Shown: in pieces, positions 3,014 through 38,658 of the stretch
Numbering within the stretch: position 1 is the first letter of the stretch
Layout: each line of letters opens with the position of its first letter
DNA from: Escherichia phage vB_EcoM_F1
Sequence record: NC_054912.1
Reading direction: 5' to 3' (one strand)
Length of the DNA stretch: 64,000 bases
Notes under the pieces: generated by a model
The model's input: the letters and a program-made list of their open reading frames with translations, nothing else
The model's database searches: none
Told to the model about the DNA's origin: nothing
Program-made: the position numbers and the translations under genes

Positions 3014-4029
3014 TGTGTTGCCTCTACATATAGCTGATTTGCATATTGAATAAGTGCTTCACGGTCAGAATCAGTGATGTCTGGAATTGCATTAATATAC
3101 TCTTCCATCAACGTCTGAAGCGATTGAACTTCAACTTCTTCACTGTCATCTGACTCGACAGAGTTATCAATTTTTGACACAACTCGTAATGAATGCACAA
3201 CTTTTTCTAGTTCAGATTCGAACTTCGTTAGATTTTTGTCTACTTCAGTTACTATAACACGTACTGATAGATTTGTAAAATCTTTATAGTCAATTTTTCC
3301 TTTAAATGGATAATGAATTCTACGATGCCAGGTAGTATTGTTTGGAATAAATTCCATTCGTTCTGTTTCTGTATCAAACATCCAGAACCCACGAGGGTCA
3401 TTCTCGTCACCTGCAGTTAGTGTCCATGGTGTCCCAATATATCTGACGTTTGCAGCCTCAGAGATAGTATGGAAGTGACCAGACCACACTTCTTTATAAG
3501 TCTTAAGGAAATCAGGTTCAAGACCGTGAGATTTCATTCCTTTATAAAAATAAAATCCATTCAGTTCCCAGTGACCAACACAAAAAGAAGCAGATGAAGT
3601 TTTGATATGCTCAAGAATTTCACCAGTATTTTCTTCACACATCCAAGGAATTAAATCAATCAAACATCCGTCAAAATCTACTGTAGTAGGCTTATCATAT
3701 ACTTTAACATTAGGATATTTAGCCAAAAGCTCAGTAGAGGCATTTGGATGCATTACATTTTTATAGTGGAGATCGTGATTTCCTACAATAGTGTGTAATG
3801 TAATTCCAGCATCATCAAGCGTTTGAACTATTTCACGAGCGAACTCCATAGTTTTATGTGTGATTGCTTTTCGCACATCAAAAATATCACCGTATTGAAT
3901 CCAGGTAGTAATTCCATTTTTCTTAGAATATTCTATTGCTTGTTTAATTCCATCAATTTGAATACCGCGAATCCACTCATCATCGGCTTTAACGCCTAAA
4001 TGCCAATCACCTAAATTTAAAATTTTCAT
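3010..4029 (-). CDS. 47: recombination nuclease subunit gp47 (Mre11/SbcD-like phosphoesterase)
   Basis: 339 aa; calcineurin-like phosphoesterase motifs (LGDWHLG, GDIFD, GNHD). Confidence 0.95.
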   Translation of the reverse strand: MKILNLGDWHLGVKADDEWIRGIQIDGIKQAIEYSKKNGITTWIQYGDIFDVRKAITHKTMEFAREIVQTLDDAGITLHTIVGNHDLHYKNVMHPNASTELLAKYPNVKVYDKPTTVDFDGCLIDLIPWMCEENTGEILEHIKTSSASFCVGHWELNGFYFYKGMKSHGLEPDFLKTYKEVWSGHFHTISEAANVRYIGTPWTLTAGDENDPRGFWMFDTETERMEFIPNNTTWHRRIHYPFKGKIDYKDFTNLSVRVIVTEVDKNLTKFESELEKVVHSLRVVSKIDNSVESDDSEEVEVQSLQTLMEEYINAIPDITDSDREALIQYANQLYVEATQ

Positions 4030-5479: not shown

Positions 5480-5652
5480 CCACATAATACGCCATACAGA
5501 GGCTCATTAGAACTTTTAAATTTTTATGCGCCTATATGTTATAGTTCCTTCTGCTTTAGCGTTATCATGAGACTCTTTAAAGCGTCTCATCATTTCCTCT
5601 TTAGAGGAACGAATTTTATTATAATCTATTTCAGAAGTCTGGTGTTCATCTT

Positions 5653-5859
5653 TCATAACTGCCACCATTTTTTGACTTGATAAGAATCAACCCACACTTT
5701 CATATTAGGGTCTGCTCTTACAATAGGAGGATTAACTTCTTTAATTGAACTATCATGGTATTCTTTTTCAGAAATTTTCACACAAAGATGACCATTCAAA
5801 GATTCAGTAAATCCTGCATTAATTTTAAGACGCTTGAATTTTACGTGTGTAAGCATCAA
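5653..5859 (-). CDS. hypothetical small protein
   Basis: 68-aa ORF on early strand. Confidence 0.4.
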   Translation of the reverse strand: MMLTHVKFKRLKINAGFTESLNGHLCVKISEKEYHDSSIKEVNPPIVRADPNMKVWVDSYQVKKWWQL

Positions 5860-6142
5860 TCATATCCTCAATCTGCGATCTAGTAGTCTTCCAAAGAATA
5901 CTAATGAGTTCATCGTTATATGGCTGTTTTAGAATATCCCGACTTTTCTTGATAGCATATTCGTATTGAGCAAAATTATTATTTTCAGCCGCAATCTGAG
6001 CATGCTTATAAAGACGATTCAGTTCGCGTTTGTTTTTAGACAATAACTTATTTGCTTTTCTTTCTGCTTCAAGACGGTTCTTTTCTTCAATAGAAGAAAT
6101 AAGCTTTTCCACTTCATCATTAATTTCGGGTTTATCAGTCAT
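5825..6142 (-). CDS. hypothetical protein, predicted coiled coil
   Basis: 105-aa ORF, charged helical sequence. Confidence 0.5.
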   Translation of the reverse strand: MTDKPEINDEVEKLISSIEEKNRLEAERKANKLLSKNKRELNRLYKHAQIAAENNNFAQYEYAIKKSRDILKQPYNDELISILWKTTRSQIEDMIDAYTRKIQAS

Positions 6143-6143
6143 A

Positions 6144-6362
6144 TTATTTCTCTAATATAAAATAAAAATCATCATCTGTTAAATGATACCGATAGTTTAA
6201 TTCTACACCATTAGATTTAAAAGCGGTATCATACGGATTTTCTGGGTCAATATCAATGTCAAGAGCTAAAACTTCCCTGAGATACATTTTAAGTAAATAG
6301 GGAATAGCTTCAACTTCAGGTATTTCTTCCAAGAATCCGGAGAGGTTAATCGTTAGCCTCAT
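6144..6362 (-). CDS. hypothetical small protein
   Basis: 72-aa ORF immediately downstream of gene 55. Confidence 0.5.
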
Positions 6363-6903
6363 ATAAAAAATCCAAACTAGGAGAATCGTCTACAACACTT
6401 TTCTTTTCAGCCCCCGGTGTTCTATAGGTTGATTCTTCGTAATGCGTCATTTTATCGTAGATGTCTTGAATAAAAGTTTCATCTACTAACGCAACCATAT
6501 CGTCGTCACGACTGTCATAGACATTGTGAACGAAGTAACTATATTTCTTTGCAACTTCCTTACGTTCTTTTTTAATACGTTGGACGAATGCATTAAAACA
6601 AGCTTGAGTTATATATGCATGTGGGTTTTTATATTTCGTTTCATCAAAATTATGAAGCCCCTTAATAGAAGCTTCTATACCATCTGCAATCATTTCTTGT
6701 TTCCAAGACTGGGTGTATCCTGAAAAGTTGAAACGTTTAGATAAGCCTTCTGCAATAAGCATAATGGCTAATCCGATAGTATCATTCTGACGAACTACTT
6801 TATTTGGGTCTTTATTATTTTCTAATTCTGTTTTCCAATCAATAATAGCTTGTAAAAGCTCTTTATTGTTTACGTAATTATATTTAGGCTTAGTTTCTGA
6901 CAT
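6346..6903 (-). CDS. 55: late-transcription sigma factor gp55
   Basis: Start taken at [20 protein letters not shown] (185 aa), matching T4 gp55. Confidence 0.93.
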
Positions 6904-32882: not shown

Positions 32883-33356
32883 TTATTTGAATGATTTAAC
32901 GTACTGAATAGAACCTTTACTATTCACGAAAGCGATTTTACCATTTTTATTATACATGGTAGCAGTACGCTGATATCCATAAGTTTGCTTACCAGATTGA
33001 TAACCAACTAATGCGAAATTATCTTCACCCATTTTATTCTGTTTAGCGCGAATGCGTTCATGACCATGTGCCATAAGAACCTTAGCATCACCCGTTGCAA
33101 TGGATCTACGAGTTTTTTCATCTTCAACTGTATTAACAAAGTCGTCAAATGAATCAAATTTAGCATGAGATTTATTATACAGTTTTCCATCTACTGCATA
33201 ATTATATCCTTGTACATCCATCTCAACTTCTGTACCATCATCCAATACAGCAGTGATTTTCTGTCCTTTTTTAAATTTCAAAAGATCAGTAAAAGATTCA
33301 GCAATAATTTGAGAATTAATAGCTGCTTCAGTAATAAATTCTTGATATGTTTTCAT
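32883..33356 (-). CDS. head internal protein (IP-type) with capsid-targeting N-terminus
   Basis: 157 aa; N-terminal MKTYQEFITE|A matches the internal-protein targeting sequence and an LxE/IxE prohead-protease site. Confidence 0.7.
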   Translation of the reverse strand: MKTYQEFITEAAINSQIIAESFTDLLKFKKGQKITAVLDDGTEVEMDVQGYNYAVDGKLYNKSHAKFDSFDDFVNTVEDEKTRRSIATGDAKVLMAHGHERIRAKQNKMGEDNFALVGYQSGKQTYGYQRTATMYNKNGKIAFVNSKGSIQYVKSFK

Positions 33357-33392
33357 GTGTTTCCTTTAAATATTTTAATTAGTAACTGTGAA

Positions 33393-33427
33393 TATACTAT
33401 CACAGTTTTAGGAGAAAGTAAACAACT
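33393..33427 (-). promoter_or_regulatory. T4-type early promoter upstream of the IP gene
   Basis: atatactatcacag ... agtaaacaac module. Confidence 0.5.
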
Positions 33428-33958
<531 letters not shown>

Positions 33959-34414
33959 TTAAAAGAGGTTGTTCATTATTCGGTAAAGTGAAGGACCCAT
34001 CACATATTGCCACTGAGTACGAGGAATAAGAGCAAAAGCATCCATCTCTGGAATCATAACGCCATCTTTATTTTCAAAATAAGACTCGCAATGGCAATTT
34101 CTAAACATCTCATGCTCTACTGGAATCGTATAATAAAATAACTGTAAGTCTTTATTACTAGAATATTTAAATACACCTAGGTCTTCTAGAAGGTCTGGAT
34201 TATAATTGCTAAAACCGGTCTCTTCTAAGCATTCTCTTCGTGCTGCATCTAGTGCACTTAAATCAGAGTTTTCTACACGGCCCTTTGGAATATCCCAACG
34301 ATGTGCCATCATTCCAGGCTTACGAGAACCAGTAACCCGACCCATAAATAAATCTTTATCTTCTGTCATAAAGATAATACCAGCTGATAGTGTTTTCATT
34401 TTAATTTCCTGCAT
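33959..34414 (-). CDS. nudE: Nudix hydrolase NudE
   Basis: 151 aa; Nudix box GRVENSDLSALDAARRECLEETG. Confidence 0.85.
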   Translation of the reverse strand: MQEIKMKTLSAGIIFMTEDKDLFMGRVTGSRKPGMMAHRWDIPKGRVENSDLSALDAARRECLEETGFSNYNPDLLEDLGVFKYSSNKDLQLFYYTIPVEHEMFRNCHCESYFENKDGVMIPEMDAFALIPRTQWQYVMGPSLYRIMNNLF

Positions 34415-34587
34415 TCAGTGATAAAGTTATTTAAATTTTGAGTATATTTCTTTTCATCAAAAATCTTTTGCTGTCTGCGTAACCGCCATGGCATTTCAAT
34501 GAACATACGCCATATTCCTGATAATACTGCTGCTGTAAAAATATTAACAAGTATGGTTAAAAGAACCCAATCTCCTATTCTGTCCAT
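34396..34587 (-). CDS. small membrane protein
   Basis: 63 aa, hydrophobic N-terminus. Confidence 0.45.
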   Translation of the reverse strand: MDRIGDWVLLTILVNIFTAAVLSGIWRMFIEMPWRLRRQQKIFDEKKYTQNLNNFITECRKLK

Positions 34588-34883
34588 TGGATTTTTATAA
34601 AAAAGTAAAATACGAACGATGATATAGGAAGACTAATGATATACCACAGAAGAACCTTCTTATCTGTGAACCATTCAGCATTCGTTAACTTAGCGCGACC
34701 GTTTTGAATACATACGAACTTATCATCTGTTACAGTAAATGGCTTAGCTGCTTGATACCCCATTCTAAACTCCCTAATTAATCGTTTCTTTGTATCTTCA
34801 GAACAGCCGCTCCAGTCAACTCTATCAACTGAAATGCCATCGTCCCCATCATCTAAATCATACCAGCGAGTTTTTAAAATCAT
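34575..34883 (-). CDS. hypothetical protein with C-terminal TM segment
   Basis: 102-aa ORF. Confidence 0.45.
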   Translation of the reverse strand: MILKTRWYDLDDGDDGISVDRVDWSGCSEDTKKRLIREFRMGYQAAKPFTVTDDKFVCIQNGRAKLTNAEWFTDKKVLLWYIISLPISSFVFYFFIKIQWTE

Positions 34884-35242
34884 TTAATTTTCCTACAATC
34901 ACTCACAAACTCTTCCATTGATTCTTTTTCAATATAAGACATATAGCTATTATATTCCTTTAATTGTATTTTGTAATCCTTTTTTCTTTGCCAATTTATT
35001 TTAAAATTATCATAATGAAAATATAACATGGTACCAAAGAATGAAAATAATGAAATTGCTATAGTATAATGAAGTTCACTCCAAACTTCTATTATATTTA
35101 CTGTGCCGTCAATGTTTAAAATAAGACAGTCAATTAACAATCCAAAAAGACTACCCGCAAGAGCTGCAGCCAACGCCACAGCAAAAATTAAAAATGACTC
35201 AGGAAACGAATATTTGACTTTATTTAGTTTTGGCTTTTGCAT
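34880..35242 (-). CDS. membrane protein
   Basis: 120 aa, two hydrophobic helices. Confidence 0.5.
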   Translation of the reverse strand: MQKPKLNKVKYSFPESFLIFAVALAAALAGSLFGLLIDCLILNIDGTVNIIEVWSELHYTIAISLFSFFGTMLYFHYDNFKINWQRKKDYKIQLKEYNSYMSYIEKESMEEFVSDCRKIK

Positions 35243-35637
35243 CGTGATTCCTTAACAAATTTCATAATTTCATCAAATTCATACGCAGCAAGTTTAAGCT
35301 GATGTTCCTTTTTAATCTTTTTACACTGTGCTTTCCAATCACGTACGCGTTTACGATAATGCCTTCCTTGATACCAGTATCCTACCCAATTTACAGGTAC
35401 TAATAAAAGTGGAACTATTAATGGAAGAATTAGCGTTGCTCCAAATATTACACCAGATTCAATATCAGTCATAACATCTATAACTATTCCGGCAATCAGC
35501 AGAATCACAAATGATACAGCTACCACAGGACCTATTAACACATCAGTAGAAATTATCTGACGCTTTAATTCATACTTCAACGGTTTACTTGGAAGGTATA
35601 GTGATGGTTTTGACATATTCTCTACATTCCTTAACAA
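35224..35637 (-). CDS. membrane protein
   Basis: 137 aa, hydrophobic helices. Confidence 0.5.
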   Translation of the reverse strand: MLRNVENMSKPSLYLPSKPLKYELKRQIISTDVLIGPVVAVSFVILLIAGIVIDVMTDIESGVIFGATLILPLIVPLLLVPVNWVGYWYQGRHYRKRVRDWKAQCKKIKKEHQLKLAAYEFDEIMKFVKESRCKSQN

Positions 35638-36193
35638 ATTTTTCTAGTAATAAATCGCTTTCAAAATTGGGATTTTCTACGAATTTATCAAAAAGATCAT
35701 CAACAATAGTTAAGATATTCTTTTTGCTAAGAATACGTTTATTTTCATGCTTCGTTTCAGAGTCAACTATAAGAGTAAAGAAATATTTCTTTCCCTGAAA
35801 TTTTACCGTAGTATCAATATAAAATAAATTTGACTTTTGTAAATTACGTTTAAACCATGCGTCACTTAAACTATAAACACCGAGATAATCAAAATCGTCA
35901 TTTAAATAACAAACTGTCCATTCAGGAGAAATGAAATCAGTAAATTCAACATCAAAATCACATGTTAATGAATGAATTGATTCAATACTGTTAATAAGTA
36001 TTCCAGGACGTATTAAAGACTTTTTACCTCTGGAAAATCTTCCAGAAAGACTTTCATTAGTTTCATATGAAGAACCCCAATAATAATTACGCCCTTCTGC
36101 CATACGTTTAAGAGCATTTAATAATTGGTCTGGAACATCAACTTGTCTTTGGAACTCTTCAAACATTGAATTGAAATCATTTTGCATTCTCAT
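35585..36193 (-). CDS. hypothetical protein
   Basis: 202-aa ORF. Confidence 0.5.
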   Translation of the reverse strand: MRMQNDFNSMFEEFQRQVDVPDQLLNALKRMAEGRNYYWGSSYETNESLSGRFSRGKKSLIRPGILINSIESIHSLTCDFDVEFTDFISPEWTVCYLNDDFDYLGVYSLSDAWFKRNLQKSNLFYIDTTVKFQGKKYFFTLIVDSETKHENKRILSKKNILTIVDDLFDKFVENPNFESDLLLEKFVKECREYVKTITIPSK

Positions 36194-36213
36194 TTCTATT
36201 TACTCCAAGTAAT

Positions 36214-36229
36214 AGGGGCCGAAGCCCCT
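36214..36229 (-). other. intergenic GC hairpin (UUCG loop), function unclear
   Basis: Plus aggggc-cgaa-gcccct; no U tract on the minus strand. Confidence 0.35.
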
Positions 36230-36234
36230 TATCA

Positions 36235-36828
36235 TTATTTCAGAGAATTAATGTATTCCTGAACATCGGCAGAGGTAGTTTCAACCCCAGAAATATTACC
36301 ATTAAAGGTTTCAACTCGAGCAAGGGTATCTTCAATATCAACCTTAGTCAGTGCTGCAATTTCAACTACATCATCGGCAGTACTAATTCCAAGGGCATTT
36401 GCCGCACGAGTTTCACGGATATATTCCAATTTAACTGCAAGCTCTTGACGAGCATCATCTAACTCAACTACTTTCTTGGCGATTTCAATTCGCATTTCAG
36501 CATAACCGTCAGCCTTAGTAGTCAACTGCTCAGCTGTTCGACGATATAGTAAACCGAGTTTAGCATGCATTGTTACATCTTGACCTTCGGAAAGAAGTTT
36601 ACGAATTTCACGCTCTTTTGATTCAGCCTGTCGATTCTTTTCGACAATAAGTTCACGAATACGTTTTTCTTCGTTAATAGATTTAACAGAAGCAGTTTTT
36701 AGATCTTTAATTTTATCAAGTAGTTTTGCTGCTGCAGCAGTATACTGTTCTTCAACAGATAGATTTTTAGCCATAGCAGAACCAAGTTTAGTGCGAATAA
36801 ACTCAACAATTTTCTTCAGTGTGTTCAT
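36235..36828 (-). CDS. PspA/IM30-like coiled-coil protein (tentative)
   Basis: 197 aa; amphipathic N-terminal helix then long heptad-rich helices; resemblance judged by eye. Confidence 0.4.
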
Positions 36829-36871
36829 AGTATTTCCTTAGGTTGATTAAAAATTAAAATCTGTGGAAGAA

Positions 36872-37417
36872 TTATATCATGCTATTTAAGAGATGTAAAC
36901 TATTTTTAATTTTACAAATTCGTTCAGCTTCTTCAACAGCGGCGGCGATAATGCTTTTAGCTATAGGAGTACTAATACTAGTAGCTTTTACACTTAACAC
37001 GATTTCTTTATCTTTACCAGGCCAACCCCACGATTTTTCACCATGAGTGCCTTTAATTACAGCAGACACCTCAAGTGAGCATCCATTATCACATGTTTTT
37101 ACATTAACAACCCAAGGATCACTTTTCTCAACCGGTTTATCAAACGGTTTATCCCAGTAAATATTAAGAGTACGTGGGACATCAAATTTAGCAGGGCAAA
37201 TCTTAACCGTAAGACCTTCGCTTTCTAGCCAATTAATAAGAGGGCGTTCATACATGCGGCGATGTGGGCTTTGAACTCGACAAGCTTTGTACCCATTGCT
37301 TGCGGCTTCACTAAGCTCTTCTAATACCTGCTTTTGCATTATTGATAAGATACCATCAAAAGATTTTTCGGAAGTTTCATTCAGTTCGGTATAAAGAGAC
37401 ATAACAGTTTTCCTCAA
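36872..37417 (-). CDS. hypothetical protein
   Basis: 181-aa ORF. Confidence 0.5.
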   Translation of the reverse strand: MRKTVMSLYTELNETSEKSFDGILSIMQKQVLEELSEAASNGYKACRVQSPHRRMYERPLINWLESEGLTVKICPAKFDVPRTLNIYWDKPFDKPVEKSDPWVVNVKTCDNGCSLEVSAVIKGTHGEKSWGWPGKDKEIVLSVKATSISTPIAKSIIAAAVEEAERICKIKNSLHLLNSMI

Positions 37418-37458
37418 ATTATAGGCTCATAATATCTCAATCATGAGCCTATGTAAAC

Positions 37459-37776
37459 TTATTTCATATTATTGAAATATTCTTCTGCGATTTCATCGTT
37501 ATCATGGTAAACTTTAGAAGACAGTTTAACATAACCTTCAGCAGTGAACATATTAATCACAACCTTTACAGTATACCACTGTCCGTCTTCATTACCCATT
37601 ACTGCGTAAGTTTCAAACATCGGATGGTCAGGACCGATAACTTTAATATCATTCACTGTACGACCAAAATCTTCTGAAACGCATTTCATAAAGAAGTTGA
37701 ACAGTTCGCCGTAATTATCCATTTCATTCTCCAAGTTGTTTTTCTGTATCAGTAGTTGATAGTTGTATAGTACCAT
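37459..37776 (-). CDS. hypothetical protein
   Basis: 105-aa ORF. Confidence 0.5.
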   Translation of the reverse strand: MVLYNYQLLIQKNNLENEMDNYGELFNFFMKCVSEDFGRTVNDIKVIGPDHPMFETYAVMGNEDGQWYTVKVVINMFTAEGYVKLSSKVYHDNDEIAEEYFNNMK

Positions 37777-37797
37777 GGAAGAACAGGGATGTAAACC
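37763..37797 (-). promoter_or_regulatory. T4-type early promoter
   Basis: gttgtatagtaccatgg ... gtaaacc module. Confidence 0.5.
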
Positions 37798-37923
37798 ATT
37801 TTGTGAAAAAAATTTTTAAAAGTTTTAGGGAATTCTAGGGAGGGATGGGCAATTAAAGGATAGGATAATATATTATAAAGGGTATAAACTAAATGATGCC
37901 TAGAGAGGTCCAGAAAGGCCTAG

Positions 37924-37958
37924 ATACCAAAAAGCCCCAACCTTTCGGCTAGGGCTAA
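37924..37958 (-). terminator. terminator hairpin, copy 1 of a 35-bp direct repeat
   Basis: Minus-strand RNA forms a 9-bp stem with GAAA loop and U5; the plus-strand version has two mismatches that are G-U pairs only on the minus transcript. Confidence 0.6.
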
Positions 37959-37963
37959 GAATG

Positions 37964-38437
37964 TTATTTGATTTGTTTAGCAGACCAAATGCGGTCTTTA
38001 ATAATTTTTTGGATGTCTTCAACATACTCAAGAGAGTGAGCATGTGGGTTATCTTTGAAACTATAAGCACGAGCTAGTTTTTGGCCTTCAGTTTTGATTA
38101 CTAAAAGCTCTTTAAGGATAGCTTCATATTTGGAGATAATTCCTTTAACAATATTTTTCTCTTGTGCGACTTTAGGATCTGCTTTAGGAGCAGGTTTACC
38201 CGAAGCCTTTGCAAAAGCAGCGCCAGTAGCAACTAAACTTTTCCAGGCCATACTAACTGCATTTCCCGTAAATCCTTCCGCTTTCATGTCGCGTGCGAAC
38301 TGGAATCGTGATTCATCAGAAGCATCTTTGTAAGAATATTTACCCGCTGCAATGGCTGCTTTTGCGACAGCTTGAATTTCGGTGCTAGATGCTTCATTTA
38401 ACACCGCTTCATTTAAAAATTGAGTATATGATTTCAT
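37964..38437 (-). CDS. head internal protein (IP-type), second copy class
   Basis: 157 aa; N-terminal MKSYTQFLNE|A targeting sequence. Confidence 0.65.
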   Translation of the reverse strand: MKSYTQFLNEAVLNEASSTEIQAVAKAAIAAGKYSYKDASDESRFQFARDMKAEGFTGNAVSMAWKSLVATGAAFAKASGKPAPKADPKVAQEKNIVKGIISKYEAILKELLVIKTEGQKLARAYSFKDNPHAHSLEYVEDIQKIIKDRIWSAKQIK

Positions 38438-38478
38438 CTTATTTCCTGTTTTAATTCGTGGATTTAATATACTACTAT

Positions 38479-38486
38479 ATTTATAC
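38479..38486 (-). promoter_or_regulatory. late promoter (TATAAATA) for the IP gene
   Basis: Plus tatttata about 40 nt upstream of the IP start. Confidence 0.6.
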
Positions 38487-38518
38487 CAAAAAGCCCCAAC
38501 CTTTCGGTCGGGGCTAAG
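38484..38518 (-). terminator. terminator hairpin, copy 2 of the 35-bp direct repeat
   Basis: ataccaaaaagccccaacctttcgg... near-identical to copy 1. Confidence 0.6.
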
Positions 38519-38566
38519 CCTTGCGGCAACCTTGTCGGGGTTCCACCTGCTAAGGCAAGTGTTTGT

Positions 38567-38658
38567 ACGAAACGCCGGGATTCGAACCCGGTTATTAAGC
38601 AGTTGACGCTACTCAATATTTTTAAAAGGCCATATCTCGACCATATCCGAACGTTCCG
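38567..38658 (-). ncRNA. tRNA-like structured RNA candidate (possible stable RNA species)
   Basis: Canonical T-arm CCGGG-UUCGAAU-CCCGG with flanking 7-bp acceptor-like pairing (CGGAACG / CGUUUCG), but a 60-nt insert; no ORF in 38520-38824. Confidence 0.35.

Follow-up and report, generated by a model that had tools for sequence, protein, structure and literature searches.

In Escherichia coli, PspA (PF04012; PDB 4WHE; 222 amino acids, aa) is both an effector and a regulator of the phage-shock response. In the enterobacterial Psp system (pspF-pspABCDE), it is accompanied by the sensors PspB and PspC and by the sigma-54 activator PspF, although these partners are not defining for IM30 or Vipp1 generally. 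Vipp1/IM30 of cyanobacteria and chloroplasts (PDB 7O3W, 6ZVR, and 8QFV; about 260-270 aa) is effector-only, without PspB, PspC, or PspF, and forms membrane-remodeling ESCRT-III-type rings and tubes. In both PspA and Vipp1, helices α4 and α5 mediate the contacts between the protomers of the polymer. In this study, a 64,000-nucleotide stretch of Escherichia phage vB_EcoM_F1 (NC_054912.1), hereafter the window, was analyzed, and the open reading frame (ORF) at positions 36235-36828 on its minus strand was found to be the ortholog of gene e.6 of phage T4. Its product very probably belongs, in divergent and shortened form, to the PspA/IM30/Vipp1 branch within the ESCRT-III superfamily.

The e.6 ORF starts with ATG and encodes a protein of 197 aa (22.1 kDa, pI 6.1); a Shine-Dalgarno sequence, AAGGA, can be read directly 7 nt 5' of the start codon (36835-36839, minus strand). 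The ortholog assignment to T4 e.6 (NP_049742, "conserved hypothetical protein") was based on length (197 aa in T4 as well) and on the position between e.5 and e.7, the order in T4 being e.8-e.7-e.6-e.5-e.4-e.3-e.2-nudE-e. The 4-kb stretch around the ORF matched Escherichia phage vB_EcoM_FN with 100% identity and had matches in 553 T4-like records. The source phage is a Tequatrovirus, and the protein had an identity of 98-100% to hundreds of proteins of this genus. Furthermore, it matched the profile of phrog_1203 ("unknown function") over the full length (E 1.1e-87, residues 1-197 aligned with 1-199 of 200). Of 50,697 phage records, 1,105 contained one full-length copy of the gene; they span Straboviridae and Ackermannviridae, with hosts that include Escherichia, Klebsiella, Shigella, Aeromonas, Enterobacter, Yersinia, Serratia, Erwinia, and others; a Kuttervirus-type query found 370 records. 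The T4 gene has been classed as early at the RNA level and as middle at the protein level, and the protein was detected by proteomics (PMC9697503 supplements). Given the identity to vB_EcoM_FN, the 1,105 records, and the proteomic detection, the ORF named in a preliminary description of the window is real; it lies on the minus strand. The same description called such a protein unusual for a phage, which was overstated, because over 1,100 sequenced phages carry the family, and proteins annotated as PspA/IM30 are present in further phages.

The link between e.6 and PspA is already known and has been published briefly. A genome announcement of 2021 described gp163 of Klebsiella phage Metamorpho as a T4 e.6 homolog, with an HHpred probability of 99.9% to E. 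coli PspA 4WHE (PMC7862958). In addition, a phage-therapy genomics paper of 2022 reported by HHpred that the phrog_1203 protein of a Kuttervirus is homologous to PspA, and hypothesized that it acts against abortive infection (Abi) by preserving the proton-motive force (PMC9409062). Metamorpho gp163, Gp_125 of the Kuttervirus Salmonella phage SeF3a, and the Vi01-like "PspA/IM30 family protein" belong to the same family as the e.6 protein of the window, with no substantive difference. No experimental study of the e.6 protein was found in the literature.

The homology was examined with three alignments of the e.6 family: A1, a profile of 30 close orthologs (at least 47% identity); A2, an alignment of 39 members down to 18% identity; and A3, a divergent subset. 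The opposing profile contained 78 Enterobacterales PspA sequences and Synechocystis Vipp1. Two large homolog searches for diverse PspA returned almost only Enterobacterales PspA of at least 78% identity. The PspA+Vipp1 profile was shallow (Neff about 2.1), and therefore the hhalign probabilities are probably understated. Reversed sequences, which retain composition and heptad periodicity, were used as controls. Against 177,635 PDB sequences, A2 found Vipp1 first (E 7.7e-5, 1-146 aligned with 1-147), and Vipp1/PspA chains made up eight of the nine top matches, all in the same register from residue 1. The local hhalign comparisons with the PspA+Vipp1 profile gave 90.7% for A2 (P 1.2e-6) and 91.9% for A3 (P 6.8e-7), and the global comparison gave 92% for A2 (P 8.3e-8, 198 columns), whereas the reversed controls for A2 and A3 reached 0.1-1.2% (P 0.04-0.5). 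The comparison with PspA/Vipp1 profiles that the preliminary description had proposed thus returned more than generic coiled-coil matches.

The Pfam matches came from divergent members of the family. Two proteins of the Kuttervirus branch exceeded the PF04012 gathering cutoff, with 39.0 and 35.1 bits versus 33.9 (about residues 6-146 aligned with 2-143), and three more divergent members matched below the threshold in the same register. Most counterparts of e.6 in Vi01-like Ackermannviridae (Kuttervirus and relatives) have a precomputed PF04012 assignment, and NCBI names one of them "PspA/IM30 family protein". The T4 branch compared with the Kuttervirus branch gave an hhalign probability of 99.6% (E 1.6e-24) over the full length, and, judged by these profiles, the two branches are unambiguously homologous from end to end. 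An exhaustive profile search of 1.84 billion representatives returned only 45 proteins, all of about 200 aa, and 39 of these make up A2. The sequence comparisons argue for homology of e.6 to PspA/Vipp1 over essentially the whole length, a call that holds only for the family taken as a whole.

Two AlphaFold2 (AF2) models built from different alignments agreed with each other, with values of the predicted local distance difference test (pLDDT) of 74.7 and 75.8. Helix α0 (residues 3-22, 36763-36822) is amphipathic, cationic, and predicted to bind membranes; it was modeled with low pLDDT and is in register with α0 of Vipp1/PspA. The hydrophobic moment of residues 2-19 was 0.45 with a net charge of +4, compared with moments of 0.49 for α0 of E. 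coli PspA, which is neutral, and 0.61 for Vipp1. The hairpin begins with helix α1 (residues 25-80, 36589-36756; pLDDT 80-95), which is colinear with Vipp1 α1, and helix α2/α3 forms its second arm (residues 86-145, 36394-36573); the helices of the two arms had pLDDT 80-96 in both models. The turn between them (residues 81-85, EGQDV) aligns with the Vipp1 turn NGEEN. The shortened α4/α5 region (residues 146-197, 36238-36393) contains short helices at 151-160, 166-172, and 186-196, with pLDDT 47-85. All of these segments are on the minus strand. The models, the moment, and the charge bear out what had first been read by eye, namely an amphipathic N-terminal helix followed by long helices.

The global hhalign alignment of the e.6 family with PspA was colinear throughout, with α0, both hairpin arms (α1 and α2/3), and the turn between them aligned, and the invariant E26 of e.6 paired with the E/D-P-x-K junction of PspA. 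Three conserved elements were found in the C-terminal part: an LG(I/L) hinge (G147), a VD(I/V)(E/D)..L.RVETF motif, and a terminal Y(L/I).SLK. The α4 motif of e.6 aligned with DEAMARFESFE of PspA, and the terminal Y(L/I).SLK with LAQLKAK at the end of α5. In this alignment, e.6 and E. coli PspA were colinear in α0, the boundaries of the α1/α2-3 hairpin, a putative "A.FE.FE"-like motif in α4, and a C-terminal "L..LK", at an identity of about 14%. Relative to PspA, the α4-α5 region has lost about 21 residues through two deletions, and the local alignments ended at about residue 137-149, before α4/α5. Vipp1 has complete α4-α5 helices followed by an additional C-terminal α6, whereas in e.6 α4/α5 are truncated and α6 is missing. 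No homologs of PspB, PspC, or PspF were detected near e.6 in a Pfam scan of the neighboring ORFs (E<=10). Because about 21 residues are deleted, α6 of Vipp1 is absent, and the Psp partners were not found nearby, e.6 appears to be a compact, effector-only PspA.

The structure searches were carried out with Foldseek, which uses sequence-aware 3Di alphabets. The top eight matches in the PDB were Vipp1 (E 3.7e-4 to 7e-3); archaeal CdvB and PspA 7ABK came next. Vipp1 was thus the best match of e.6 in both sequence and structure. In the viral library BFVD, the family itself was followed by a PspA/IM30 protein of a phage and by a "Snf7 family protein" of a giant virus. The PspA/IM30 protein of Acinetobacter phage vB_AbaM_ME3 (229 aa), found by structure search at E 8e-3, is likewise phage-encoded and of the same superfamily. 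It has the ordinary length of PspA and is seen by standard annotation, whereas the e.6 family is more divergent and its T4 branch goes unrecognized by Pfam. In relation to ESCRT-III/Snf7/CdvB (PF03357), e.6 showed no sequence match and had no MIM, Vps4-interaction motif, or Vps4 partner; it appears to be nearer to the PspA/Vipp1 branch. The resemblance to PspA/Vipp1/ESCRT-III noted in the preliminary description is therefore supported by the A2 profile, hhalign, Foldseek, the Kuttervirus proteins that pass the PF04012 cutoff, and the published HHpred results.

Several results weigh against the assignment or against a function derived from it. Taken alone, the protein of the window had no PF04012 match even at E<=10 (Pfam cutoff 33.9 bits), no PDB match by phmmer, and likewise none in NCBIfam; the single-sequence searches of Pfam, NCBIfam, and the PDB gave just sub-threshold coiled-coil noise. 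A1 matched Vipp1 in the PDB weakly (E 1.4-3.4), yet colinearly (query 4-143 versus chain 4-145). With hhalign, A1 reached 3.6% against the PspA profile, below its reversed controls at 10-11%, and found nothing against the single E. coli PspA sequence. Because A1 was no better than the reversed controls, the assignment rests on transitivity via the divergent relatives. The bias correction of HMMER on the Vipp1 matches was large (about 16 bits), and α0 and the C-terminal region had low pLDDT in the AF2 models. Moreover, the α4/α5 region, which holds the polymer-contact helices in PspA and Vipp1, is about 21 residues shorter, so polymerization of e.6 is not assured. The gene context is not conserved, and hence guilt by association gives no support. 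Knockdown of e.6 had no phenotype; in the CRISPRi-ART tables, T4 e.6 is listed with "unknown function", and it is scored, like e.2-e.8, as "Not Fit", that is, with no measurable fitness cost in the laboratory host (PMC11879866 supplements). Membrane binding, oligomerization, and upkeep of the proton-motive force by e.6 are predicted properties.

On balance, we favor a mechanism in which an early e.6 protein would bind, self-assemble on, and protect the inner membrane, and thereby preserve the proton-motive force. The protein would be made soon after infection from a promoter of its own. A sigma-70-type promoter-like site with an extended -10 (GTTTACA-17-TG-TATAAT, 11/12) lies just upstream of the gene, at 36899-36871 on the minus strand, was the top-scoring site in 33300-38600, and is probably the early promoter of e.6; it would stand in place of the sigma-54 control of E. 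coli psp. The protein would then bind the cytoplasmic face of the inner membrane via α0, in a peripheral role like that of E. coli PspA, and polymerize into carpets, rings, or rods in the manner of PspA/Vipp1, sealing the stressed bilayer and limiting proton leak. The proton-motive force and the ATP supply would be kept up in this way until programmed lysis. T4 shuts off host transcription globally and within minutes. The host psp operon, inducible through sigma-54 and PspF, would be unable to respond after this shut-off, and the phage may bring a constitutive, effector-only copy, without PspB, PspC, or PspF, because the host response could not be mounted. The stresses buffered would be the lesion of genome injection, the many small membrane proteins of the phage itself, and possibly membrane-depolarizing Abi effectors. 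The dispensability in the laboratory fits a conditional role, either in stress buffering or in countering membrane-depolarizing defenses.

A more specific form of this mechanism, which we consider rather unlikely, treats e.6 as a minimal, self-sufficient ESCRT-III-type polymer that serves as an early counter-defense of large virulent phages (Straboviridae and Ackermannviridae). It would patch the inner membrane against depolarizing Abi effectors and replace the silenced Psp response of the host. Candidate effectors would be, for example, RexAB-like channels, the transmembrane (TM) effectors of CBASS-, retron-, and Thoeris-type systems, and Pif/Abi pores. A PADLOC search of the window proteins gave no match. 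If this form were true, e.6 would be the first anti-defense protein that repairs the damage of an immune effector rather than inhibiting a sensor or an enzyme, and the smallest tractable PspA for structural work.

It is also conceivable, if improbable, that e.6 is a regulatory mimic, whose PspA-like hairpin binds PspF, PspB/C, or host PspA and silences, titrates, or redirects the envelope-stress response. Residues 1-144 of E. coli PspA are the PspF-binding domain. Both conservation and alignment are best in the α0-α3 part of e.6, which corresponds to the crystallized PspF-binding fragment 4WHE (A2 match E 1.2); the effector-type C-terminus is the part that is shortened, and early expression would suit a takeover of the host. 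However, the identity to E. coli PspA is just about 14%, hhalign detects no match when the E. coli sequence is used singly, and phages that infect Aeromonas, Serratia, Erwinia, and other hosts carry members of the family as well. Furthermore, since T4 shuts off host transcription globally, a repressor devoted to a single sigma-54 operon seems superfluous, and α0 is still amphipathic, cationic, and, by prediction, membrane-binding in character.

A role in lysis timing or lysis inhibition was considered quite improbable. In this explanation, e.6 would buffer the membrane against holin/antiholin, together with the small membrane proteins and the lysozyme e. In Tequatrovirus, e.6 does lie about 2.3 kb from e, and its block includes four small ORFs (34396-35637, minus strand) for which TM segments are predicted, namely e.4, e.3, e.2, and orf63 (137, 120, 102, and 63 aa, respectively). 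Their Kyte-Doolittle values in 19-residue windows were 1.96-2.86, their PHROGs are phage-specific, and the PHROG labels read "membrane protein". The setting among small membrane proteins given in the preliminary description is thus partly right: the TM ORFs are at that place, but there are four rather than three, and on the coding strand they are downstream of e.6, not upstream, with the soluble e.5 between. This e.5 ortholog (202 aa, phrog_2607) lies directly downstream of e.6 at 35585-36193 on the minus strand. No Pfam family match at E<=10 was found for e.2-e.5 and for the 181-aa ORF upstream of e.6, nor did they show similarity to PspB/PspC.

Two ORFs with N-terminal TM segments also follow the PspA-like gene of Kuttervirus, which speaks for the lysis explanation, but they are not homologous to e.2-e.4 or e.5. 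In addition, T4 e.6 is early while holin function is late, RB43 and phiAS4, which have e.6 beside nrdD/nrdG and without TM neighbors, do not retain the adjacency to e and the TM ORFs, knockdown of e.6 and of e.2-e.5 had no fitness effect, and the TM ORFs lack similarity to PspB/PspC. The link to lysis timing implied in the preliminary description accordingly finds no support, given the early class of the T4 gene and the lack of a conserved position beside the lysozyme gene. The weakest alternative, a very improbable one, is a convergent generic coiled-coil or BAR-like hairpin that owes its likeness to heptad periodicity and composition and has a non-membrane function (scaffold, adaptor, or binder of nucleic acid or protein); against it, the PDB holds thousands of coiled coils and yet Vipp1/PspA took eight of the nine top places, always in register from residue 1, reversed controls were worse by 4-6 orders of magnitude in P-value, family members passed a curated Pfam threshold, Foldseek and BFVD recovered PspA, Vipp1, CdvB, and Snf7 specifically, and the non-coiled α0 and the C-terminal motifs aligned as well. 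The e.6 protein showed neither sequence-profile membership of BAR/F-BAR/I-BAR nor the three-helix crescent dimer.

A conserved, operon-like module of e.6 and e.5 was considered and rejected, since the neighbor in Kuttervirus is not an e.5 homolog and the context in RB43 and phiAS4 is different. In Kuttervirus vB_EcoM_3HA11 (locus piece 5647-6383), the ORFs next to the PspA-like gene encode 190 aa (phrog_11433, "membrane protein") and 55 aa. The TM neighbors in Kuttervirus showed no sequence relation to T4 e.2-e.5, and an e.5 homolog was absent beside the PspA-like gene. The combination of a PspA-like gene with small membrane ORFs could be an analogous pairing, or a coincidence. In the reference genome of RB43 (NC_007023), e.6 is annotated as a 97-aa fragment, and the N-terminal part can be read in another frame (locus piece 3300-3950); by its sequence this is a frameshift, presumably of either a pseudogene or a sequencing error. 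Records of e.6 homologs (e.g., BFVD A0A5Q2F7S5) are variously labeled "host specificity protein", "Tail completion protein", and "putative ABC-type phosphate transport system", and none of these labels had support in any analysis of the e.6 family.

In the 41-nt spacer between the stop of e.6 and the start of e.5, a palindromic GGGGC-UUCG-GCCCC tetraloop hairpin was found at 36214-36229 (minus strand), with no T tract behind it. It resembles the stable intercistronic hairpins typical of T4 and probably has an RNA-stabilizing or processing role rather than that of a terminator. Farther downstream, the 63-aa ORF (34396-34587, minus strand) is intact, has one TM segment, and overlaps the stop of e.2 (34575-34883, minus strand) by 13 nt in another frame. 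Together, e.2 and this ORF span the 166-aa "membrane protein" phrog_2203, covering its positions 1-103 and 106-166. The e.2 gene therefore looks split or frameshifted relative to the fused form elsewhere. The T4 counterpart of the 63-aa ORF is only a 51-aa TTG-initiated remnant in an unannotated gap (T4 locus piece 3473-3628).

On the upstream side, a 181-aa ORF (36872-37417, minus strand) and a 105-aa ORF (37459-37776, minus strand) stand in place of T4 e.7 (111 aa) and e.8 (87 aa). The 181-aa ORF belongs to phrog_6869 and has partial matches to phrog_8232, phrog_18312, and phrog_3012. By sequence comparison, the e.7/e.8 region directly upstream of e.6 is a mosaic replacement. Beyond it, a 157-aa ORF (37964-38437, minus strand) begins with MKSYTQFLNEA and shares its N-terminal motif with a 157-aa ORF at the ipIII position (32883-33356, minus strand), which begins with MKTYQEFITEA. 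Starts of this type resemble the leader that targets T4 internal proteins to the capsid. Around the ORF at 37964-38437 are two near-identical terminator-like hairpins, AGCCC..GAAAGGTTGGGGCT-TTTTGG, at 38515-38492 and 37956-37933, and this bracketing suggests an inserted internal-protein cassette.

Although T4 is the best-studied virulent phage, e.6 is still "hypothetical" or of unknown function in RefSeq, GenBank, PHROGs, and the functional-genomics tables, and its kinship with PspA exists only as one-line HHpred remarks in two papers. The family is therefore known but badly under-annotated. An early, effector-only PspA of a phage would offer a testable handle on how virulent phages keep the membrane energized after the stress response of the host has been shut off. 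Furthermore, it may open the questions of whether phages use repair against membrane-targeting abortive infection and of what minimal sequence PspA/ESCRT-III polymerization requires.
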